This document shows positions 1 through 48,340 of a stretch of 64,000 nucleotides of DNA, one piece after another. A model generated the notes under the pieces. The model was not told where the DNA came from and did not search any database. It was given only the letters and a program-made list of their open reading frames with translations. Source of the DNA: Escherichia phage vB-Eco-KMB39; the sequence record OR539219.1. One strand, 5' to 3'. The translations under genes were made by a program, and so were the position numbers. The stretch's first letter is position 1; each line of letters begins with the position of its first letter.

Positions 1-1030
1 AGGTGGTTCAGAATATATTTTTGCAACTGCACAAAACTGGCCAGAAGGCTTCTCTGGAATTTTAACTCTGTCTGGTGGATTATCATCAAATGCTGAAGTA
101 ACAGCAGGAGATTTGATGGAAGCCTGGGACTTCTTTGCTGACCGTGAATCTGTTGACGTTCAACTGTTTATTGCGGGTTCTTGTGCTGGTGAATCTTTAG
201 AAACAGCATCTACTGTCCAAAAACACGTCGTTTCAATTGGTGATGCTCGCCAGGATTGCTTAGTATTGTGCTCACCACCGCGTGAAACTGTAGTTGGAAT
301 TCCTGTAACCCGTGCTGTTGATAACTTAGTCAATTGGAGAACTGCAGCAGGTTCATACACTGATAATAACTTTAATATCAGTTCAACCTACGCAGCAATT
401 GATGGCAACTACAAATATCAGTATGACAAATATAATGATGTGAATCGTTGGGTCCCATTAGCAGCTGATATTGCTGGATTGTGTGCAAGAACTGATAACG
501 TATCTCAGACTTGGATGTCTCCAGCTGGTTATAATCGTGGCCAGATTCTTAACGTTATTAAACTTGCTATTGAAACTCGCCAGGCTCAGCGCGACCGTTT
601 ATACCAAGAAGCTATCAACCCGGTAACTGGTACAGGTGGTGATGGTTACGTATTGTATGGTGATAAAACAGCTACTTCTGTTCCTTCTCCATTTGATCGT
701 ATTAACGTTCGTCGTCTGTTTAATATGTTGAAAACGAATATCGGACGTAGTTCAAAATATCGTTTGTTCGAATTAAACAATGCGTTTACTCGTTCATCAT
801 TCCGCACAGAAACTGCCCAGTACTTACAGGGAATTAAAGCTCTCGGTGGAATTTATGAATATCGTGTAGTTTGCGATACAACAAATAACACTCCGTCAGT
901 AATTGATAGAAATGAGTTTGTTGCAACATTCTACATCCAACCGGCTCGTAGTATAAATTATATCCAACTTAATTTCGTCGCAACTGCTACTGGTGCAGAT
1001 TTCGATGAGTTAACTGGTCTTGCAGGTTAA
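1..1030 (+). CDS. 18: tail sheath protein gp18, C-terminal part (5' end lies outside window)
   Basis: Frame open from window edge (first full codon at nt 2) to TAA 1028-1030; C-terminal sequence ...FVATATGADFDELTGLAG; followed by GC hairpin; synteny with 19/20. Confidence 0.85.
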   Translation, partial: GGSEYIFATAQNWPEGFSGILTLSGGLSSNAEVTAGDLMEAWDFFADRESVDVQLFIAGSCAGESLETASTVQKHVVSIGDARQDCLVLCSPPRETVVGIPVTRAVDNLVNWRTAAGSYTDNNFNISSTYAAIDGNYKYQYDKYNDVNRWVPLAADIAGLCARTDNVSQTWMSPAGYNRGQILNVIKLAIETRQAQRDRLYQEAINPVTGTGGDGYVLYGDKTATSVPSPFDRINVRRLFNMLKTNIGRSSKYRLFELNNAFTRSSFRTETAQYLQGIKALGGIYEYRVVCDTTNNTPSVIDRNEFVATFYIQPARSINYIQLNFVATATGADFDELTGLAG

Positions 1031-1038
1031 TTGATTGT

Positions 1039-1052
1039 GGGGCTTCGGCCCC
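1039..1052 (+). terminator. GC stem with UUCG tetraloop after gene 18
   Basis: GGGGC-TTCG-GCCCC 9 bp after stop. Confidence 0.5.
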
Positions 1053-1117
1053 TATTCTCGAGGAAACAAGTGATTATTTCTAAGTTTGTTACAATAAAAC
1101 CAAGAAATCATTCAAAA

Positions 1118-1675
1118 ATGTGGTCGGCAATTCTAGGATATGAAGTATCATATCATGATACAGTATCTGTTCCAATAGAATTAATGCCAAAGAATAGTAA
1201 TAAAATAGTTGACGCTAAATGTGATTTGTGCGGTATTAAATTTAGTAGAAGCATTCAGCTTTTAAATAGAACACCCACACATGCGTGTAGAAAATGCAGT
1301 ATTAAACAAGTTGCTATTAAAAATTCGGAAGTTCAATCCGGAATAAGCAGACCATGGCAAAGAGGCGATAAACATCCTCGATGGACTGGTAAAAGAAAAG
1401 AGTTTGCATTATATGCTAGTAGAGTTCATTCTATAACTAAGTCAGCTAAAATAAGAAAAATTTGGTCAAAATGGCCGAATGCTGATAAAATAGGAGTGTG
1501 CGGTGTAGAAGGTGCTTATCAACTCGATCATAAAGTATCTATCAAATATGGATTTGATAATTTAATTCCGCCGGAAATTATAGCAAGCGTAAAAAATTTA
1601 GAAATAATCACTTGGGAATCTAACCGAGAAAAGTCAAAAAGAAATAGCGTAGATCTTTGGGATTTACTAGAATGA
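1118..1675 (+). CDS. HNH-like nuclease (putative free-standing homing endonuclease) inserted between genes 18 and 19
   Basis: ORF track frame 1031-1675; first ATG at 1118 (MWSAILG...); two CxxC pairs (CDLCG, CRKCS) and C-terminal DH..N..N motif (QLDHKVSIKYGFDNL...NLEIITWESNREK); flanked by hairpins. Confidence 0.5.
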   Translation: MWSAILGYEVSYHDTVSVPIELMPKNSNKIVDAKCDLCGIKFSRSIQLLNRTPTHACRKCSIKQVAIKNSEVQSGISRPWQRGDKHPRWTGKRKEFALYASRVHSITKSAKIRKIWSKWPNADKIGVCGVEGAYQLDHKVSIKYGFDNLIPPEIIASVKNLEIITWESNREKSKRNSVDLWDLLE

Positions 1676-1782: not shown

Positions 1783-2274
1783 ATGTTTGTAGATGATGTA
1801 ACACGAGCGTTTGAATCTGGTGATTTTGCTCGACCTAACTTATTCCAAGTAGAAATTTCTTATCTTGGACAAAATTTTACGTTCCAATGTAAAGCCACTG
1901 CTTTACCAGCTGGTATTGTAGAAAAAATTCCAGTCGGATTTATGAACCGTAAAATTAACGTGGCAGGCGATCGTACATTCGATGACTGGACTGTTACAGT
2001 AATGAACGATGAAGCTCATGATGCTCGCCAGAAGTTTGTTGATTGGCAAAGCATTGCTGCTGGTCAAGGAAACGAAATTACTGGTGGAAAACCTGCAGAG
2101 TATAAAAAGAGCGCTATTGTTCGTCAATATGCTCGTGATGCTAAAACAGTAACAAAAGAAATTGAAATTAAAGGTCTGTGGCCTACTAACGTGGGTGAAC
2201 TTCAATTAGATTGGGATTCAAACAATGAAATCCAAACCTTTGAAGTAACTCTTGCTCTCGATTATTGGGAATAA
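1783..2274 (+). CDS. 19: tail tube protein gp19
   Basis: 163 aa, MFVDDVTRAFESGDFARPNLFQVEISYLG...; two TATAAATA late promoters upstream. Confidence 0.9.
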   Translation: MFVDDVTRAFESGDFARPNLFQVEISYLGQNFTFQCKATALPAGIVEKIPVGFMNRKINVAGDRTFDDWTVTVMNDEAHDARQKFVDWQSIAAGQGNEITGGKPAEYKKSAIVRQYARDAKTVTKEIEIKGLWPTNVGELQLDWDSNNEIQTFEVTLALDYWE

Positions 2275-2281
2275 AATGAAT

Positions 2282-2295
2282 GGGGAGAAATCCCC
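2282..2295 (+). terminator. GNRA-loop hairpin after gene 19
   Basis: GGGGA-GAAA-TCCCC. Confidence 0.45.
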
Positions 2296-2306
2296 ATCCT
2301 GCTTAA

Positions 2307-3931
<1,625 letters not shown>

Positions 3932-6098: not shown

Positions 6099-7664
6099 AT
6101 GACTATCAAAACTAAAGCTGAACTTTTGAACAAATGGAAGCCATTACTGGAAGGTGAAGGTTTACCGGAAATTGCTAATAGCAAACAAGCGATTATCGCT
6201 AAAATCTTTGAAAACCAGGAAAAAGATTTCCAGACAGCTCCGGAATATAAAGACGAAAAAATTGCTCAGGCATTCGGTTCTTTCTTAACAGAAGCTGAAA
6301 TCGGTGGTGACCACGGTTACAATGCTACCAACATCGCTGCAGGTCAGACTTCTGGCGCAGTAACTCAGATTGGCCCAGCTGTTATGGGTATGGTACGTCG
6401 TGCTATTCCTAACCTGATTGCTTTCGATATTTGCGGTGTTCAGCCGATGAACAGCCCAACTGGTCAGGTATTCGCACTGCGCGCAGTATATGGTAAAGAC
6501 CCAATCGCTGCCGGCGCTAAAGAAGCATTCCACCCAATGTATGGTCCAGATGCAATGTTCTCTGGTCAGGGTGCTGCTAAGAAATTCCCAGCTCTGGCTG
6601 CTAGCACACAAACCGTTGTAGGTGATATCTATACTCACTTCTTCCAGGAAACTGGTACTGTGTATCTGCAGGCTTCTGCTGTAGTAACAATCGATGCTGG
6701 TGCATCTGACGCAGCTAAATTAGATGCAGAAATTAAGAAACAAATGGAAGCTGGTGTACTGGTAGAAATCGCTGAAGGTATGGCTACTTCTATCGCTGAA
6801 CTCCAGGAAGGTTTCAACGGTTCTACCGATAACCCATGGAATGAAATGGGCTTCCGTATCGATAAACAAGTTATCGAAGCTAAATCTCGCCAGCTGAAAG
6901 CTGCTTACTCTATCGAATTAGCACAAGACCTCCGCGCTGTTCACGGTATGGATGCTGATGCTGAACTGTCTGGTATTCTGGCTACCGAAATCATGCTGGA
7001 AATCAACCGTGAAGTTGTTGATTGGATTAACTACTCAGCTCAGGTTGGTAAATCTGGTATGACCCTGACTCCAGGTTCTAAAGCTGGTGTATTTGACTTC
7101 CAGGATCCGATTGATATTCGTGGTGCTCGCTGGGCGGGTGAATCCTTTAAAGCTCTGTTGTTCCAGATTGACAAAGAAGCAGTTGAAATTGCTCGTCAGA
7201 CCGGTCGTGGTGAAGGTAACTTCATTATCGCTTCCCGTAACGTAGTTAACGTTCTGGCTTCAGTTGATACCGGCATTTCTTATGCTGCACAGGGTCTGGC
7301 TACCGGCTTTAACACTGATACTACCAAGTCAGTATTTGCTGGTGTTCTGGGTGGTAAATACCGTGTATATATCGACCAGTATGCTAAACAGGATTATTTC
7401 ACTGTAGGTTATAAAGGTCCGAACGAAATGGATGCTGGTATTTACTATGCTCCATATGTAGCTCTGACTCCGCTGCGTGGTTCCGATCCGAAGAACTTCC
7501 AACCAGTAATGGGATTCAAAACTCGTTACGGTATCGGTATCAACCCATTTGCAGAATCCGCTGCTCAGGCTCCGGCTTCTCGCATCCAGAGCGGTATGCC
7601 TTCTATTCTGAATAGCCTTGGTAAAAACGCTTACTTCCGCCGTGTATATGTTAAAGGTATCTAA
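6099..7664 (+). CDS. 23: major capsid protein gp23
   Basis: 521 aa, MTIKTKAELLNKWKPLLEGEGLPEIANSKQAII...; late promoter inside gene 22; strong terminator after stop. Confidence 0.95.
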   Translation: MTIKTKAELLNKWKPLLEGEGLPEIANSKQAIIAKIFENQEKDFQTAPEYKDEKIAQAFGSFLTEAEIGGDHGYNATNIAAGQTSGAVTQIGPAVMGMVRRAIPNLIAFDICGVQPMNSPTGQVFALRAVYGKDPIAAGAKEAFHPMYGPDAMFSGQGAAKKFPALAASTQTVVGDIYTHFFQETGTVYLQASAVVTIDAGASDAAKLDAEIKKQMEAGVLVEIAEGMATSIAELQEGFNGSTDNPWNEMGFRIDKQVIEAKSRQLKAAYSIELAQDLRAVHGMDADAELSGILATEIMLEINREVVDWINYSAQVGKSGMTLTPGSKAGVFDFQDPIDIRGARWAGESFKALLFQIDKEAVEIARQTGRGEGNFIIASRNVVNVLASVDTGISYAAQGLATGFNTDTTKSVFAGVLGGKYRVYIDQYAKQDYFTVGYKGPNEMDAGIYYAPYVALTPLRGSDPKNFQPVMGFKTRYGIGINPFAESAAQAPASRIQSGMPSILNSLGKNAYFRRVYVKGI

Positions 7665-41316: not shown

Positions 41317-42495
41317 TTAAAAGTATTTTTTAAAACTCATCATAACTTTATCATCAACATCATTATCAATCTGTGCAACAAGATAAGATGACAGTTCTAC
41401 TTCTTGCGGCGCGGATTGAACATTATCAGAATTAAGGTATTCACGAATCCAAGGATATGGATGTTTAACCGGAGCATCGGTAATTGGGCATGGAAGACCA
41501 CACTGTTTCATACGAGATACAGTTAAGTAATCAATAAAGCTCCACATGCTATTTGTATTTAATCCAGGAACATCGCCATCTTTAAATAAATGAACTGCCC
41601 AATCTTTTTCTTGGCGGTTAACTTCCATGAAAATATCAACTGCTTCTTGTTCACACTCTTTGGCAATTTTAACCCATTCATCACCATCAGTGCCAAGTTG
41701 AAGTTGACGAATAATATACTGGGTGCCTTTAAGGTGGAGTTGTTCGTCTCGAGCAATGAATTTCATAATCTTCGCATTACCTTCCATGATTTCCATATTT
41801 TTATGGAAGTTGAAAGTACATGCAAAGGATACATAAAAACGAATAGCTTCCAGGGCATTGATAACATGAAGGCAGAGATAAAGCGACTTCATCAATGCAT
41901 ATTTACATTCTTCCACATGCATAAGACTATTTGAATATGCATCTAAATCATATTCATTTTCGGAAAAACATTTAAAAATTTCTTTTGCATTTTCCCATTC
42001 GCGCGTCTTAACCAGAACATCATCATAATAACGACCAATAGATTCAGCACGTTTCATGATAGCTTTATCTAATACAATCTCATCAAATACCTTTGACGGA
42101 TCAGTATAAAGATTTCGCATAATATGAGTGTATGAACGACTGTGAATAGTTTCACTAAAAGTCCATGTAGCAACCCATGTATCAAGACTTGGGTCTGAAA
42201 TTAACGACATAAGTACAGCAGACGGTGCACGACCCTGAATGCTATCTAGAAGTGATTGATACTTCAGGTTATTAGTAAAAATATCTTGCTGATATTGAGG
42301 AAGCTTGTTAAATTGCGCAGCATCCATCATTAAGTTTACTTCTTCAGGACGCCAGAAAAATGACAACTGCTTTTCGGTTAAATCTTCAAAAACTTTATGA
42401 CGTTGAATATCGTAACGCGCAATACCAAGACCTGAACCGAAGAACATAGGTTCTTTTAAAACATCAACTGGATTTGTATTAAAAACTGTAGACAT
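41317..42495 (-). CDS. nrdB: ribonucleotide reductase small subunit, uninterrupted
   Basis: 392 aa from ATG 42495 (MSTVFNTNP...); continuous reading frame; start overlaps mobE stop (TAATG). Confidence 0.9.
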   Translation of the reverse strand: MSTVFNTNPVDVLKEPMFFGSGLGIARYDIQRHKVFEDLTEKQLSFFWRPEEVNLMMDAAQFNKLPQYQQDIFTNNLKYQSLLDSIQGRAPSAVLMSLISDPSLDTWVATWTFSETIHSRSYTHIMRNLYTDPSKVFDEIVLDKAIMKRAESIGRYYDDVLVKTREWENAKEIFKCFSENEYDLDAYSNSLMHVEECKYALMKSLYLCLHVINALEAIRFYVSFACTFNFHKNMEIMEGNAKIMKFIARDEQLHLKGTQYIIRQLQLGTDGDEWVKIAKECEQEAVDIFMEVNRQEKDWAVHLFKDGDVPGLNTNSMWSFIDYLTVSRMKQCGLPCPITDAPVKHPYPWIREYLNSDNVQSAPQEVELSSYLVAQIDNDVDDKVMMSFKKYF

Positions 42496-43226
42496 TAATT
42501 TTTCCTCTTTAAAATTCTGCCGCGTTTCCAACCTGGCGGTATAATATCATCTTTACCTATAAGCGTGCATTCACTTCCATTATTAATCCATTTCTTACCG
42601 CGGATTCCTTTATAATCTCTTGGTTGTATTTTGTCAAACTTTGCATCAAGTTGATATGCCCATCGAAATCCATAGGCATATTGAAATTTACCCTCAGCAC
42701 AATATTTGATATTTGACCCGTTTCCATTAACTGACCTGGACGCTGCGGCAATAGAGTGAAAGGTTTCTATGAAATCCCCATCTAATGAGAATTTATGTAT
42801 TTCGATAGATGGGCATGCATACCTATTCACGTTTGATACATGTTGTTTAGTTTCGTTTTTATGATGCTTGCCTAACATTCCTCTAGGATGAGGATTATTT
42901 TTCCAATATTTCTTAAAGAAATCAGAATTAGCTTTAGCAAATAATTTTCTGTGCAAGCTATACAATCTGTTATTAATTCTATTACCAGCTTTATCTGTTG
43001 CCATTAACGTTAACGCAGAGGCAAGACCAAAATGGCCTTCATTTATCTTGCATAGTAATAGATGCGCTATAAAATGTTCTCTAGCTGTTAATTCAACTAA
43101 ATTTTCTTTATCATCAGAACCTCCCATGCATTTAGGGACTATATGATGTGTCTCTTTATACTCGGATAAATGTTCCCGAGCCTGAGCTCGGGAAATTAGG
43201 TCATTATAGATTTTTTGATAATTCAT
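42495..43226 (-). CDS. mobE: HNH homing endonuclease MobE
   Basis: 243 aa; HNH core ETHHIVPKCMGGSDDKENLVELTAREH; located between nrdA and nrdB as T4 mobE. Confidence 0.75.
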   Translation of the reverse strand: MNYQKIYNDLISRAQAREHLSEYKETHHIVPKCMGGSDDKENLVELTAREHFIAHLLLCKINEGHFGLASALTLMATDKAGNRINNRLYSLHRKLFAKANSDFFKKYWKNNPHPRGMLGKHHKNETKQHVSNVNRYACPSIEIHKFSLDGDFIETFHSIAAASRSVNGNGSNIKYCAEGKFQYAYGFRWAYQLDAKFDKIQPRDYKGIRGKKWINNGSECTLIGKDDIIPPGWKRGRILKRKN

Positions 43227-45490
43227 TACAATTTACACGCTGCACAATCGTCGGCTTTAGGAGTTTCTATTTCATAATCATCAGTACCAGAACCATCACG
43301 GGTATTATGATAATAGAAATTTTTAATGCCATAATACCATCCGTATAACATGTCATCAATCATTATTGACATTGGAACCTTTCCTTTTGGAAAAATCTGC
43401 GGGTCATAGTATGTATTCGCTGAAGCTGATTGACATACCCATTTCAGCATAATAGCTACCTGCGTAAGATAAGGTTTATTACCTTTCTTAGCTAATTTCC
43501 ACGTATAATCATATAGGTCTATGTTATGCTCAATATTGGGCACGACTTGATTAAAGGAGCCCTCTTTTGATTCTTTAACAGAGACTGGTCCACGTGGAGG
43601 CTCGATACCGTTTGTACTGTTAGAAACTTGGGAAGATGACTCACATGGCATAAGTGCTGATAATGTGCTATTACGGATGCCAAAGAGCTTAAGGTCTTCC
43701 CGCAGCGCCGACCAGTCACAAACGTATTTTGGAGATGCGATTTGGTCAATCTTTTTATTGTACCAGTCGATAGGTAATTCGCCTCGAGACCAACGAGTGT
43801 CTGAATAATATTCGCAAGGTCCTTTTTCTTTGGCGAGCTTAATGGATGCTTTAATGAGTCCATACTGTAATCTCTCAAATAGTTCATGTGTTAAATCATT
43901 AGCATCTTCATAAGAAGCAAAGTTACTTGCCAGCCAAGCTGCATAGTTGGTAACACCTACGCCAAGATTTCGACGCTTTTTAGCTTTTTCTGCTTCAGGA
44001 ACCGGATATCCTTGGTAATCCAAAAGATTATCAAGAGCACGAACTTGAACTTCTGCCAATTCATTAATTTTATCTTGGTCTTGCCAGTCAAAATTATCTA
44101 ATACGAATGCAGAGAGAGTACACAATCCAATTTCAGCATCAGGACTATTCACATCATTTGTTGGAATAGCAATTTCACAGCACAAGTTACTCTGACGAAT
44201 AGGTGCCTTTTCACGAATAAACGGAGTATAGTTATTCGTATTATCAATGAACTGCACATAAATCCTTGCTGTTCCTGAGCGTTCAGTCATGAGTAATTCA
44301 AATAGTTCACGGGCTTTAATACGCTTTTTACGAATATTAGGGTCTTTTTCTGCGGCTTCGTACAATTCACGGAAACGGTCTTGGTCTTTAAAATAAGAAT
44401 AATAAAGCTCGCCACCCATTTCATGCGGACTGAACAAAGTAATGTAGTCGTTCTTTCCAAAACGTTCCATCATCAAATCATTCAGCTGGACGCCATAATC
44501 CATATGACGGATACGGTTTTCTTCTACACCCTTGTTATTTTTTAGAACGAGAAGATTTTCAACTTCCAAATGCCAAATAGGATAATAAGCAGTAGCAGCG
44601 CCGCCACGAATTCCACCCTGTGAGCATGATTTAACAGCAGTCTGAAAATGTTTCCAAAAAGGAATAACACCAGTATGGCGTACTTCACCCATGCCAATCT
44701 TAGAACCTTCGGCACGAATCATACCAACGTTAATACCAATTCCAGCACGTTTGGAGATATATTCAACAATTGAAGTGGAAGCCTTATTGATAGACTTTAA
44801 TGAATCACCTGCCTCAATAACAACACATGAACTAAACTGTCGAGTCGGAGTACGGCAACCAGCCATAATAGGAGTTGGTAATGAAATCTGTCGAGTAGAT
44901 ACTGCTTCATAAAAATGAATAACATGTTTTAATCTATCAATAGGTTCATCTTGATGCAATGCCATTCCAATAGTCATAAATGCAAACTGAGGAGTTTCAT
45001 AAATTTGACCAGTGGTTTTATCTTTAACTAGATATTTTTCTTTTAATTGCATCGCCCCGGAATAAGTAAATTCCATATCCCGCTCGTGCTTAATTTTTGA
45101 TTCTAAAAATGTAATTTCTTCTGCTGAATATTTTGACAATAATTCAGGGTCATATTTACCTTCATTTACACAGTAAGAAATATGGTCAATAAATGAACGT
45201 GGTTCATACTGCCCATAAACATGCTTACGAAGAGCAAACATTAAACAACGTGCAGCTACATATTGATAATCAGGCTCTTCAACTGAAATAGAATTCGCAG
45301 CAGCCTTAATTACAATGGTTTGAATGTCATCAGTGGTCATTCCATCACGGAGATATGATTTAATATTTTCATATAATTCATAAGGATCTACAGATGTTCC
45401 TTCAGCTGCCCAAGATAAAACTTTAATAATTTTTTGCGGGTCAAAGCTTTGAGAAACACCACTACTTTTGATAACATTAATTAATTGCAT
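43226..45490 (-). CDS. nrdA: ribonucleotide reductase large subunit
   Basis: 754 aa; ATP-cone N-terminus and catalytic core. Confidence 0.95.
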   Translation of the reverse strand: MQLINVIKSSGVSQSFDPQKIIKVLSWAAEGTSVDPYELYENIKSYLRDGMTTDDIQTIVIKAAANSISVEEPDYQYVAARCLMFALRKHVYGQYEPRSFIDHISYCVNEGKYDPELLSKYSAEEITFLESKIKHERDMEFTYSGAMQLKEKYLVKDKTTGQIYETPQFAFMTIGMALHQDEPIDRLKHVIHFYEAVSTRQISLPTPIMAGCRTPTRQFSSCVVIEAGDSLKSINKASTSIVEYISKRAGIGINVGMIRAEGSKIGMGEVRHTGVIPFWKHFQTAVKSCSQGGIRGGAATAYYPIWHLEVENLLVLKNNKGVEENRIRHMDYGVQLNDLMMERFGKNDYITLFSPHEMGGELYYSYFKDQDRFRELYEAAEKDPNIRKKRIKARELFELLMTERSGTARIYVQFIDNTNNYTPFIREKAPIRQSNLCCEIAIPTNDVNSPDAEIGLCTLSAFVLDNFDWQDQDKINELAEVQVRALDNLLDYQGYPVPEAEKAKKRRNLGVGVTNYAAWLASNFASYEDANDLTHELFERLQYGLIKASIKLAKEKGPCEYYSDTRWSRGELPIDWYNKKIDQIASPKYVCDWSALREDLKLFGIRNSTLSALMPCESSSQVSNSTNGIEPPRGPVSVKESKEGSFNQVVPNIEHNIDLYDYTWKLAKKGNKPYLTQVAIMLKWVCQSASANTYYDPQIFPKGKVPMSIMIDDMLYGWYYGIKNFYYHNTRDGSGTDDYEIETPKADDCAACKL

Positions 45491-46047: not shown

Positions 46048-46359
46048 TTACACCGCCATTTTTCCTTTAATAGGAGGGTGTGATTCGTAACCTTTAAGAA
46101 CGAAATCTTTAGGCCTGAGTTTAAGAACATATTTTAATTGTTCTTTAGTAGAAAGATGACGGAATTTATAAGGCAATCCGCCTATTACCAGTTCACAAAG
46201 CTCTTTAGGTTCACGACGTAAAATTTCTTTACATTGTTCAACGTGATTCATATAGATATGAGTATTACCGCCAGAAAATATCAAATCTCCAGGAATAAGA
46301 TTACACATCTTAGCTACAATATGAATTAACGCAGCATATGATGCAATATTAAACGGTAG
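46048..46359 (-). CDS. td: thymidylate synthase, exon 2
   Basis: Frame begins directly after intron 3' AUG (CUACCGUUUAAU = LPFN...); C-terminal half of thymidylate synthase. Confidence 0.9.
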   Translation of the reverse strand, partial: LPFNIASYAALIHIVAKMCNLIPGDLIFSGGNTHIYMNHVEQCKEILRREPKELCELVIGGLPYKFRHLSTKEQLKYVLKLRPKDFVLKGYESHPPIKGKMAV

Positions 46360-47375
46360 CATTATGTTCAGATAAGGTCGTTAATCTTACCCCGGAATTA
46401 TATCCAGCTGCATGTCACCATGCAGAGCAGACTATATCTCCAACTTGTTAAAGCAAGTTGTCTATCGTTTCGAGTCACTTGACCCTACTCCCAAAAGGGA
46501 TAGTCGTTAGGCATTTATGTAGAACCAATTCCATTTATCAGATTTTACACGATAAGTAACTAATCCAGACGAAATTTTAAAATGTCTAGCTGCATCTGCT
46601 GCACAATCAAAAATAACCCCATCACATGAAATCTTTTTAATATTACTAGGCTTTTTACCTTTCATCTTTTCTGATATTTTAGATTTAGTTATGTCTGAAT
46701 GCTTATGATTAAAGAATGAATTATTTTCACCTGAACGATTTCTGCATTTACTACAAGTATAAGCAGAAGTTTGTATGCGAACACCGCACTTACAAAACTT
46801 ATGGGTTTCTGGATTCCAACGTCCGTTTTTACTTCCGGGTTTACTGTAAAGAGCTTTCCGACCATCAGATCCAAGTTTAAGCATCTTAGCTTTAACAGTT
46901 TCAGAACGTTTCTTAATAATTTCTTCTTTTAATGGATGCGTAGAACATGTATCACCAAACGTTGCATCAGCAATATTGTATCCATTAATTTTAGAATTAA
47001 GCTCTTTAATCCAAAAATTTTCTCGTTCAATAATCAAATCTTTCTCATATGGAATTTCTTCCAAAATAGAACATTCAAACACATTACCATGTTTGTTAAA
47101 AGACCTCTGAAGTTTTATAGAAGAATGGCATCCTTTTTCTAAATCTTTAAAATGCCTCTTCCATCTCTTTTCAAAATCTTTAGCACTTCCTACATATACT
47201 TTATTGTTTAAAGTATTTTTAATCTGATAAATTCCGCTTTTCATAAATACCTCTTTAAATATAGAAGTATTTATTAAAGGGCAGTCCTACAATTTAGCAC
47301 GGGATTGTCTACTAGAGAGGTTCCCCGTTTAGATAGATTACAAGTATAAGTCACCTTATACTCAGGCCTCAATTA
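46360..47375 (-). ncRNA. group I self-splicing intron in td (1016 nt)
   Basis: 5' splice site ...UUGGGU|UAAUUGAGGCCUGAGUAUAAGGUG; 3' end ...AUG|CUACCG; splicing restores a continuous thymidylate synthase frame; carries the I-TevI ORF. Confidence 0.9.
46507..47244 (-). CDS. intron-encoded GIY-YIG homing endonuclease I-TevI
   Basis: 245 aa; GIYQIKNTLNNKVYVGS GIY-YIG module, Zn finger and C-terminal DNA-binding domain; lies wholly inside the td intron. Confidence 0.9.
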   Translation of the reverse strand: MKSGIYQIKNTLNNKVYVGSAKDFEKRWKRHFKDLEKGCHSSIKLQRSFNKHGNVFECSILEEIPYEKDLIIERENFWIKELNSKINGYNIADATFGDTCSTHPLKEEIIKKRSETVKAKMLKLGSDGRKALYSKPGSKNGRWNPETHKFCKCGVRIQTSAYTCSKCRNRSGENNSFFNHKHSDITKSKISEKMKGKKPSNIKKISCDGVIFDCAADAARHFKISSGLVTYRVKSDKWNWFYINA

Positions 47376-47924
47376 ACCCAAGAAAACATCTACTGATCGT
47401 TGATACCACTGCAAATCCAAATAGCCATTACGCACATTAAACTGATAGAACATATGACAAGGCGGTAATGCCATTTGCTTGAGTTCAGCTGGATTCCATG
47501 CTGAAACAACTTGACGTCTATCATTTGGCAGTTTTTTAATACGATCAATAACTTCTACAATTTGGTCTACACCGCCAAAATCACGCCATTGTTTTCCATA
47601 AATTGGACCAAGTTCACCGCTATGGTATCCTAAATCTTTTGCTTGATTTTCGTAATTTTCATCCCAGACTGTTTTGCCTTGAATTAATGAATCATGCTGA
47701 ATTAATCGTAAATCATTTACGTTAGTACTTCCTGACAAAAACCATATTAGCTCAGCAATACAAGCTTTCCAGGCGAGCTTCTTAGTCGTTACTGCAGGAA
47801 AACCTTTAGTTAAATCCCAGCGTAATTTAGTACCGAACAAAGCAATTGTTCCTGTGCCTGTTCGGTCATCGGTTTCATAGCCATTTTCAAAAATGTCTTT
47901 AATTAAATCTTGGTATTGTTTCAT
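47376..47924 (-). CDS. td: thymidylate synthase, exon 1
   Basis: MKQYQDLIKDIFENGYETDDRTGTGT...; frame reaches intron-borne UAA directly after 5' splice site. Confidence 0.9.
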
Positions 47925-47969: not shown

Positions 47970-48320
47970 TCAATACGGTTTAGCATCAAATTTTCTTTCA
48001 ATTTCAGGCGTGAAATACAATTCTTTACCGCGTTTGGAAAAGCGACCAATAATATGATAATTATTCTCATCAAACGTAATATTGCCAATATCCATAGCTT
48101 TCAACCAAATATCGATATTTCTATCCAGTTTTATATCAAAATTCCAATACGGAGAACTATTACCGAAAATACTGCAAGCGGATTCAGTGCAATAACTGCT
48201 GCTATAAATCTTGTCTTTGGGAACTACTAATTGATAGACGCCTTTGATAAACTGAGGACCCTGCCATTTTGGTTGTTTCGCGTCTTTTTCTAATAGAATA
48301 GGATAATAATTAAAGTTCAT
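47970..48320 (-). CDS. hypothetical protein inserted between frd and td
   Basis: 116 aa from ATG 48320 (GTG at 48332 gives 120 aa); no recognisable motif; T4 frd and td overlap in my recollection. Confidence 0.5.
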   Translation of the reverse strand: MNFNYYPILLEKDAKQPKWQGPQFIKGVYQLVVPKDKIYSSSYCTESACSIFGNSSPYWNFDIKLDRNIDIWLKAMDIGNITFDENNYHIIGRFSKRGKELYFTPEIERKFDAKPY

Positions 48321-48340
48321 ATTTTCCGCCACGCGTTATT

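Follow-up and report, generated by a model that had tools for sequence, protein, structure and literature searches.

The biology of mobE and of the nrdB intron has already been published. The nrdB genes of phages T4 and RB3 carry a group I intron with I-TevIII, reportedly described by Eddy and Gold in 1991, and the endonuclease genes mobE and hef, including Hef of phage U5, are said to have been reported by Sandegren et al. in 2005. The I-TevIII of T4 is inactive and the T4 nrdB intron is mobilised in trans via nicking by MobE (PMC2790892). This nicking was mapped at nt 122–126 of T2 nrdB and is strand-specific, affecting the recipient's nrdB on its non-coding strand (PMC2790892). For I-TevIII, cleavage occurs 14/16 bp upstream of the point where the intron inserts (PMC1865063, Robbins et al. 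2007), and Hef of U5 also targets nrdB (PMC2988022).

Here we describe the corresponding locus of Escherichia phage vB-Eco-KMB39 (OR539219.1), analyzed within a stretch of 64,000 nt that we refer to as the window. We consider it very probable that an RB3-type mobE homing endonuclease gene lies between nrdA and an intron-less nrdB in this phage, in a locus that is mosaic but known and ordinary.

Organization of the nrdA–nrdB locus

The source phage belongs to the genus Tequatrovirus (T4-like), and its nrdA shares 96.9% nucleotide identity with nrdA of T4. The td gene of this phage holds an intron with I-TevI; the phage is thus not intron-free. The locus comprises the following features:

45490..43226, minus strand: nrdA, large subunit of the aerobic ribonucleotide reductase, 754 aa (ORF list and sequence)
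43226..42495, minus strand: HNH homing-endonuclease gene, RB3-type mobE allele, a free-standing ORF of 732 nt (243 aa)
42495..41317, minus strand: nrdB, ribonucleotide reductase small subunit, 1179 nt (392 codons and the stop), uninterrupted
42504..42507, minus strand: GAGG, putative Shine-Dalgarno sequence of nrdB, 8 nt upstream of the nrdB start and still inside the final codons of the HNH ORF

The gene order is nrdA, HNH gene, nrdB. A preliminary description of this DNA had placed the HNH gene between the two reductase genes with one-base overlaps on both sides, and this is what we read in the sequence: both junctions contain TAATG, in which stop and start share one base, the final A of TAA being the first letter of the following ATG. 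The junction of nrdA and the HNH gene reads ...AAATTGTAATGAATTAT..., that of the HNH gene and nrdB reads ...AAAAATTAATGTCTACA... The start of the HNH gene overlaps the nrdA stop (UAAUG, 43224–43230) and an own ribosome binding site (RBS) is absent; from its sequence and position we infer that the GAGG serves nrdB as Shine-Dalgarno sequence.

Several of these properties are shared with T4 mobE (PMC2790892), namely an HNH gene standing free between the two reductase genes, the lack of an own promoter or RBS, the UAAUG start, a hairpin and residues 1–57 of the protein. However, the overlap with nrdB is ATGA in T4 and TAATG in the window. The mobE gene of RB3 (NC_025419, RB3_226) has the same length of 732 nt and both TAATG overlaps. 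In contrast to the window, in which nrdB is intron-less and of the ECP52/SfPhi01 type, RB3 pairs its mobE with an intron-containing nrdB encoding an active I-TevIII.

The hairpin is located in the 5′ coding region of the HNH gene:

43173..43194, minus strand: hairpin with a 9-bp stem, UUCCCGAGC/GCUCGGGAA, and the loop UCAG

This 22-nt stem-loop folds at −16.7 kcal/mol (ViennaRNA), and the window, T4, T6, RB3, SYGD1 and G50 all carry exactly this sequence. In T4 mobE the same hairpin has been mapped as a weak intrinsic terminator, a function demonstrated in T4 alone (PMC2790892); being identical, the window hairpin is a candidate weak terminator. A generic scan for promoters and terminators yielded matches no more frequent than in shuffled sequence, and it missed the known hairpin due to the short U-tract. 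A crude motif search for a MotA-type middle promoter of nrdB found the T4 and T6 site at −190; it did not find one in the RB3-type allele and also missed the one expected in T2.

nrdB is uninterrupted and retains an empty intron site

The following features of nrdB relate to the intron and its surroundings:

41820/41819, minus strand: empty group I intron insertion site, nrdB nt 676/677 (T4 and RB3 alignments)
About 41834–41836, minus strand: predicted I-TevIII cut position (distance from PMC1865063)
41853..42015, minus strand: hypervariable nrdB cassette, nt 481–643, roughly aa 165–205

According to the preliminary description, nrdB is continuous over 392 codons from the ATG at 42495 and lacks the group I intron of T4 nrdB, and an alignment with T4 nrdB was suggested as a check. 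The ORF itself, an end-to-end match to Pfam Ribonuc_red_sm (E 1.9e-36) and the collinear alignment of NrdB residues 3–388 with E. coli R2 structures (E 1e-124) bore out the first statement. The second was borne out by the alignments: between the positions matching nt 676 and 677 of the window nrdB, T4 carries an insertion of 598 nt and RB3 one of 1091 nt. The window sequence runs unbroken through this site, TTTGCAT/GTACTTTC (the slash marks the insertion point). In the T4/RB3 type the intron point follows the T of a Cys codon, TTTGC(A/G)T/GTAC, and the window is continuous there.

An Rfam scan of the window returned no group I intron. However, the scan also missed both T4 control introns (td and nrdB) as well as the td intron within the window itself, so that the absence of an intron from nrdB rests on the alignments and not on Rfam. 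The possibility that nrdB hides an intron or a frame break is next to nil in view of the continuous ORF, the collinearity with E. coli R2, the precise single point at which the T4 and RB3 insertions fall, and the 100% identity of the protein to NrdB of ECP52, a mobE-less phage annotated as intron-less (10 nt differences in 1179). Hence nrdB contains neither a hidden intron nor a frame break. The absence of the intron is a matter of gene content, and chance is therefore not at issue.

Compared with the intron-minus T4 substrate on which cleavage was tested, the window shows no change over at least −32 to −9, a stretch that takes in the cleavage positions, and differs at −8, −2, +5, +8, +20 and +23, all six differences being synonymous. 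The window lacks the intron of T4 and RB3, and its insertion site, intact and unoccupied, is a possible target of I-TevIII. The hypervariable cassette of the window is the allele of ECP52, SfPhi01 and JY01 and is 90–93% identical to Mosigvirus nrdB; its counterpart in the alignment with E. coli R2 is a surface hairpin region.

The HNH gene is an RB3-type allele of mobE

Comparison with T4 divides the HNH gene into two modules:

43056..43226, minus strand: module common to T4 and T6 mobE, codons 1–57, with the HNH catalytic motif
42498..43055, minus strand: RB3-type C-terminal region, 186 codons, presumed DNA-binding part; NUMOD1 at about 42696..42788

Homology to T4 mobE as detected by blastn is confined to the first 170 nt (57 codons), with 96.9% nucleotide identity, and in a protein alignment residues 1–57 are ∼93% identical to T4 MobE. 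In the family alignment, all 23 relatives keep the HNH motif residues (HH at 27–28, N42, H51 and H55) unchanged. Pfam located HNH at aa 18–44 and NUMOD1 at aa 147–177 of the protein. The HNH score of 20.4 bits lies slightly below the curated cut-off of 21.4, and the catalytic assignment is therefore based mainly on the identity to residues 1–57 of T4 MobE. The protein also matched phrog_655, 'homing endonuclease' (E 2.4e-57). The RB3-type C-terminal 186 codons, on the other hand, showed no similarity to T4 MobE/NrdB.1 by either blastn or blastp: the tail of T4 MobE is composed of NUMOD3 repeats and a zinc-finger-like CPHC...H..C motif, whereas the window gene is devoid of these beyond residue ∼60. 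The name mobE used in the preliminary description is thus appropriate for the family, by the first 57 codons, but the gene is not the T4 allele, as its tail is RB3-type with NUMOD1.

The position between nrdA and nrdB is also that of Hef (AY262133), which replaces mobE in U5. Apart from sharing this locus, Hef (544 aa) is unrelated to the window protein and lacks HNH similarity, and BLASTP against U5 Hef gave an insignificant E value of 1.2. We rejected an identity of the HNH gene with Hef, to which we assign virtually no probability.

The AlphaFold model of the protein (pLDDT 86.7, pTM 0.46) shows loosely arranged domains. Its top match in the PDB is I-HmuI of Bacillus phage SPO1 (1u3e; probability 0.96), a match that is weak (E 4.9e-3, TM 0.21–0.29) because of the loose domain arrangement expressed in the pTM. 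Both proteins combine an N-terminal HNH with an extended, modular DNA-binding region containing NUMOD-type elements. However, I-HmuI is intron-encoded, the window gene is free-standing, and the two share only 10% sequence identity. A sequence search of the PDB gave a marginal HNH match to a group II intron maturase (E 0.13) as the sole result.

All 11 carriers examined have an unbroken ORF, and its dN/dS is ∼0.1 over the full length (0.05–0.11 against 8 alleles). These values, together with the invariance of the catalytic H/N/H across the 23 relatives and a patchy distribution with near-identity that fits recent horizontal spread (see below), make it very unlikely that the gene is decaying or has been domesticated, an immobile remnant kept for nrdB expression signals alone. 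Such a role would be in line with the nrdB Shine-Dalgarno sequence embedded in its final codons and with the situation in T4, where deletion of mobE is selected against because the gene contains the nrdB middle promoter (PMC2790892). Taken together, the sequence comparisons showed the HNH gene to be an intact, selectively maintained RB3-type allele of the mobE family.

The T4 MobE nick site and the specificity of the RB3-type allele

42370..42374, minus strand: equivalent of the T4 MobE nick sites, nrdB nt 122–126, codon 42 (AAG)

The window nrdB is identical to T2 nrdB over nt 85–398, nick site included. Being T2-identical there, it is predicted to be a substrate for the T4 MobE nicking route. 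The intron-less nrdB had been described before as a homing target in mixed infection with an intron-plus phage. This is plausible in view of the identity to T2 but not in the form stated: the I-TevIII of T4 is defective, and the route would instead be that via MobE.

The nrdB genes of T4 and T6 are heavily substituted at about nt 100–140. Wilson and Edgell take these substitutions in the nick region as self-protection (PMC2790892), and T6-type nrdB substitutions accompany T6-type mobE in about 40 records. We compared the region in a panel of 20 phages taken from GenBank phage records (close relatives were scarce among IMG/VR viral contigs). In this panel alignment no protective nrdB substitutions were found in carriers of the RB3-type allele, and the exact or near-exact susceptible T2 sequence is present at the nick site in 5 of 11 RB3-type carriers, the window included. 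We found no paper that maps the cut site of the RB3-type protein.

These data bear on the question of whether the HNH gene could be a plain T4 mobE orthologue with the same specificity, nicking the non-coding strand at nrdB nt 122–126. With T4 specificity, the five carriers that keep a T2-like nick site would nick themselves, whereas T4 and T6 carry substitutions there that are read as self-protection. Moreover, the C-terminal 186 residues, presumed to bind DNA, are unrelated to those of T4, with NUMOD1 instead of NUMOD3 and the zinc-finger-like motif. We therefore regard a common specificity as rather unlikely, although the shared position, the first 57 codons, the hairpin and the UAAUG coupling to nrdA, as well as the designation of the RB3 copy as mobE in GenBank, would agree with it. 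It is possible, though still doubtful, that RB3-type MobE targets a site other than that of T4 MobE; we propose this because of the different DNA-binding module and because the T2-like, susceptible nt 122–126 are kept in carriers.

Mosaic structure and substitutions tracking mobE

The 3′ end of nrdA, the mobE gene and nt 1–53 of nrdB in the window are identical to SYGD1, and the remainder of nrdB is nearly identical to mobE-less ECP52 and SfPhi01. The exact combination of RB3-type mobE and ECP52/SfPhi01-type nrdB was absent from the collection, the best match over the locus reaching 96.9%. Judged by these comparisons, the locus is a mosaic whose component alleles had been deposited before.

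Compared with SYGD1 and SfPhi01 alone, the window looked like a homing product whose crossover fell on the site nicked by T4 MobE. We rejected this idea because in a larger panel two further phages proved identical to the window across this zone, mobE-less ECP52 starting at nrdB nt 7 and ph0021, a mobE carrier, over nrdB nt 1 to 260. The crossover can be placed only between nrdB nt 7 and 53, a marker-free stretch. Five differences between the window and ECP52 cluster around the intron site (nrdB nt 669–699). We also set aside the idea that this cluster marks a micro-conversion around the I-TevIII site, as a longer SfPhi01-like tract, starting within nrdB nt 133–368 and ending within nt 700–791, explains it equally well.

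The panel alignment revealed substitutions at the following positions that separate carriers from phages without the gene:

42490..42492, minus strand: nrdB codon 2 (TCT)
43227..43351, minus strand: last 125 nt of nrdA, with two substitution clusters tracking the presence of a mobE-family gene

Codon 2 of nrdB is TCT in all 11 RB3-type carriers and AGC in all 7 mobE-less phages, and it is the only nrdB position in the panel separating these two groups. The last 33 nt of nrdA encode ...DDCAACKL in 13/13 carriers and ...EDCSSCKL in 7/7 non-carriers; the second nrdA cluster tracking a mobE-family gene is located at −125..−99. If RB3-type MobE has a target of its own, the nrdA 3′ end or the nrdA–nrdB junction may be a candidate, as the only substitutions tracking mobE presence are found there (codons of the NrdA CxxC tail and nrdB codon 2). 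A target at the junction would be destroyed by insertion of the gene itself. Alternatively, the RB3-type enzyme may cut its own genome, as has been reported for SegH and Hef.

Distribution among related phages

At least 40 Tequatrovirus genomes are colinear over the whole 4.8-kb nrdA–mobE–nrdB–denA stretch. SYGD1 and ESh29 carry HNH genes 100% identical to that of the window, and the C-terminal 560 nt of the window gene are 98.9% identical to RB3 mobE (98.9–100% across close carriers). The RB3-type C-terminal allele occurs in 54 phage records at 95–100% identity; carriers include RB3, RB5, RB7, RB10, EC121 and G28, and the copies of RB3, RB5, RB7 and RB10 are annotated as mobE. Full-length relatives at 48–77% identity are found in T4-like phages of Yersinia, Citrobacter, Salmonella and Vibrio, with L016, L017 and L021 holding such relatives at the same nrdA/nrdB position; orthologues at this position in other T4-like genera show 59–66% identity. 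The distribution of the RB3-type allele is patchy, 54 of more than 600 related records, across genomes that are otherwise ∼96% identical. Together with the 95–100% identity of the alleles, this pattern fits recent horizontal spread and is consistent with super-Mendelian, HNH-dependent inheritance in mixed infection.

The nrdB intron was detected at a coverage of at least 80% in 118 records, compared with 619 records containing at least 80% of the nrdA–nrdB query. Intron-less nrdB is thus the majority state, and the intron is present in only about one in five T4-like records. The arrangement in the window is not unusual; the gene, its position and an intron-less nrdB have already been deposited repeatedly in GenBank, and as a whole they are known and ordinary.

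Discussion

In analogy to T4 MobE and I-HmuI, translation of the HNH protein would be coupled to that of nrdA, and its yield would be low. Its C-terminal module would bind DNA, and the protein would nick or cut a nearby conserved site in phages lacking the gene. Recombinational repair in mixed infection would then copy the gene and flanking markers into recipient genomes. As to nrdB, the gene has either never gained the group I intron of T4 and RB3 or lost it.

The value of these results is modest: they refine the picture of mobE alleles and add little as a discovery. At least three alleles (T4, T6 and RB3 types) are annotated as 'mobE'; all they share is the 57-codon HNH module and the hairpin, their DNA-binding tails being different, and a mapped target exists for T4-type mobE only. 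If the RB3-type allele is retargeted, two kinds of selfish element, the T4/T6-type and the RB3-type allele, would compete for this locus, and T4 MobE could evict the RB3-type allele, bringing the intron in. Phages such as this one, in which an RB3-type mobE is combined with a T2-like nrdB, are natural material for questions of retargeting by tail swap and of allele displacement.

Gene layout and the empty intron site in nrdB

According to the ORF list and the underlying sequence, this T4-like genome has an HNH ORF directly between nrdA and nrdB, followed by denA and then rnlA; the nearby td gene is interrupted by a group I intron.

47924..47373, minus strand: td exon 1
47244..46507, minus strand: I-TevI in the td intron, intact, 245 aa
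46362..46048, minus strand: td exon 2
45490..43226, minus strand: nrdA, 754 aa
43226..42495, minus strand: HNH ORF, 243 aa
42495..41317, minus strand: nrdB, 392 aa
41313..40879, minus strand: denA, 144 aa

As the preliminary description had stated, TAATG is found at both borders of the HNH ORF, where stop and start codons share one base. The ORF lacks its own Shine-Dalgarno sequence, and its start overlaps the nrdA stop; in the T4 literature this arrangement is interpreted as a translational coupling by which expression stays low (PMC2988022). The same description had reported nrdB as continuous over 392 codons, which was borne out: the frame is unbroken, matches Pfam Ribonuc_red_sm, and NrdB residues 3–388 align to E. 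coli R2 structures. It had also proposed locating the insertion site by alignment with T4 nrdB. The window is colinear with T4 save for an insertion specific to T4, and a multiple alignment of window, T4 and RB3 sizes the insertion at 598 nt in T4 and 1091 nt in RB3. The empty intron site lies at nrdB nt 676/677 (41820/41819, TTTGCAT/GTACTTTC), within a Cys codon. No hidden intron or frame break, the one finding named as speaking against an intron-less gene, appeared in the alignment with T4 and RB3.

Scanning the window with Rfam gave zero matches for group I introns. However, the scan also gave zero matches in a 13-kb T4 control locus that includes the td and nrdB introns, and Rfam is therefore uninformative here: the absence of the intron rests on the alignment. 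At the gathering thresholds of Rfam 15 no group I intron was called in T4 td, T4 nrdB or the window td; negative Rfam results carry no information on T-even phage introns into which large ORFs are inserted. The window td region (46048..47924) is colinear with T4 (96.8%). The phage is thus intron-plus at td, with I-TevI, and intron-minus at nrdB, and therefore not intron-free. Between td and frd we observed a 120-aa ORF (47970..48332, minus strand); T4 has no counterpart, as frd overlaps td there, whereas T2 and RB3 carry a hypothetical gene at this position.

A mobE-family gene with a C-terminus unlike that of T4

The HNH gene had been called mobE. Sequence comparison places it in the mobE family, but not as the T4 allele: homology to T4 continues across nrdA into the HNH gene, where it ends after 170 nt (96.9%). 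Residues 1–57 are ∼93% identical to T4 MobE and the remainder is unrelated. Pfam detects HNH (aa 18–44) and NUMOD1 (aa 147–177) in the window protein, whereas T4 has NUMOD3 and a zinc-finger-like motif, located within the reference-annotated NrdB.1. T6 represents a third allele, sharing the HNH module and the last ∼250 nt with T4 but differing in the middle. The shared 5′ module contains a hairpin with a 9-bp stem and the loop UCAG, identical in window, T4, T6, RB3, SYGD1 and G50; in T4 this hairpin terminates 30–50% of transcripts (PMC2790892). Hef, the phage U5 endonuclease at the same site, is unrelated to the window protein and was ruled out. In the T4 reference (NC_000866, control locus 6717..7417) mobE (141 aa) and nrdB.1 (83 aa) are separate and in different frames. 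T4T (HM137666, locus 431..1129), RB59 and further T4 records are shorter by 2 nt in this stretch and carry a single 232-aa mobE ORF, the tail of which is NrdB.1 with NUMOD3 and the zinc-finger-like motif; judged from these records, the split looks like a 2-nt sequence discrepancy.

Several results bear on whether the gene is functional. The ORF is intact in 11/11 carriers of the RB3-type allele (the 57-codon HNH module plus 186 codons of its own), with dN/dS values of 0.05–0.11 against the window. PHROGs assigns it to phrog_655 ‘homing endonuclease’ (E 2.4e-57), and a large protein collection holds 823 relatives. Full-length relatives (48–77% identity) occur in T4-like phages of Yersinia, Citrobacter, Salmonella and Vibrio; three more distant T4-like contigs also carry an orthologue at the nrdA-nrdB junction. 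An AlphaFold model built from 23 sequences had pLDDT 86.7 and pTM 0.46. Its best PDB match, at a probability of 0.96 but with low TM and E 4.9e-3, was the nicking homing endonuclease I-HmuI, which fits a predicted extended architecture of HNH and DNA-binding modules.

Distribution of the arrangement

At least 40 Tequatrovirus genomes match a 4.8-kb nrdA-to-denA query end to end in a single piece (94.5–96.9% identity), all with the HNH gene present and nrdB uninterrupted. At ≥80% coverage, 118 phage records contain the T4 intron sequence as against 619 matching the nrdA-nrdB query, which indicates that nrdB without intron is the usual state. The C-terminal part of the HNH gene occurs in 54 records (95–100% identity), including RB3, RB5, RB7 and RB10, where the gene is annotated mobE; RB3, in contrast to the window, pairs it with an intron-containing nrdB. 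SYGD1 and ESh29 carry an HNH gene 100% identical to that of the window, and ECP52 encodes a NrdB protein that is likewise 100% identical. The arrangement is ordinary and has been sequenced many times already; the whole genome has no match above about 96–97% identity in the phage collection. One IMG/VR relative (IMGVR_UViG_2974742932_000001, ∼1889..3501) has an intron-containing nrdB and a nrdA-nrdB gap of ∼1.6 kb, larger than any mobE allele seen in this analysis.

Mosaic structure around the HNH gene

We compared 20 loci: 11 RB3-type, T4, T6 and 7 without a gene between nrdA and nrdB. The window equals SYGD1 from ∼275 nt before the nrdA end, across the HNH gene, up to nrdB nt 53. From nt 7 onward, its nrdB has only seven differences to that of mobE-less ECP52 (nt 369, five near the intron site, nt 1008). 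A window crossover exactly at the T4 MobE nick site was considered and dropped, as the larger panel gave no support. Codon 2 is the only nrdB position that splits RB3-type carriers (TCT, 11/11) from non-carriers (AGC, 7/7). In nrdA, the C-terminal redox tail tracks mobE status across the panel (window 43227..43351): the last 33 nt encode ...DDCAACKL (CAAC) in 13/13 carriers of any mobE allele and ...EDCSSCKL (CSSC) in 7/7 non-carriers. A second cluster at −125..−99 changes four residues (DDMLYGWYYGIKN vs DDLLYFWYFGEKN) in 6/7 non-carriers, T2 being the exception.

Within nrdB, a cassette at nt 481–643 (window 41853..42015, ∼aa 165–205) is hypervariable while the rest of NrdB is almost invariant; all 29 of the 29 amino-acid differences between window and T2 fall within residues 160–215. 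The nine panel members typed across the cassette yield six variants (∼5 clearly distinct alleles), with lengths varying by 3–4 codons. The window allele is common to mobE-less ECP52, SfPhi01 and JY01 and is 90–93% identical to Mosigvirus nrdB. The cassette aligns with the surface hairpin region of E. coli R2; its variability may reflect recombination together with a loop that tolerates change, or else selection.

nrdB as a proposed homing target and the target of RB3-type MobE

The intron-less nrdB had been proposed as a homing target in mixed infection. The observation itself was confirmed and the interpretation was partly right, but neither the allele nor the endonuclease on which it relied was the correct one. 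T4 I-TevIII is inactive, and T4 spreads its nrdB intron in trans via MobE (PMC2790892). T4 MobE nicks T2 nrdB at nt 122–126 (PMC2790892). The window equals T2 across nrdB nt 85–398, and its nrdB should therefore be a substrate for T4 MobE nicking. The intron site follows 550 nt downstream of the nick position, inside a co-conversion range published as up to 2 kb. Six synonymous differences (−8, −2, +5, +8, +20 and +23 from the insertion site) separate the window from the T4 intron-minus substrate tested with I-TevIII. By the T4 MobE route the homing-target prediction is reasonable.

T4 nrdB is heavily substituted at the nick site, a feature interpreted by the authors as self-protection (PMC2790892). 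T6 nrdB is likewise substituted, and T6-type nrdB sequence goes with T6-type mobE in ∼40 records, with few exceptions such as Aplg8. This pattern was absent in the 11 RB3-type carriers of the panel; at the nick site, window, ph0021, G28, T4ev151 and Jbel match T2 or depart from it by a single change. Because the nick site is T2-like and the C-terminal module unrelated, the RB3-type enzyme probably either has a target other than nrdB nt 122–126 or tolerates self-cutting. The question of the RB3-type MobE target concerns all 54 carrier records and not the window alone.
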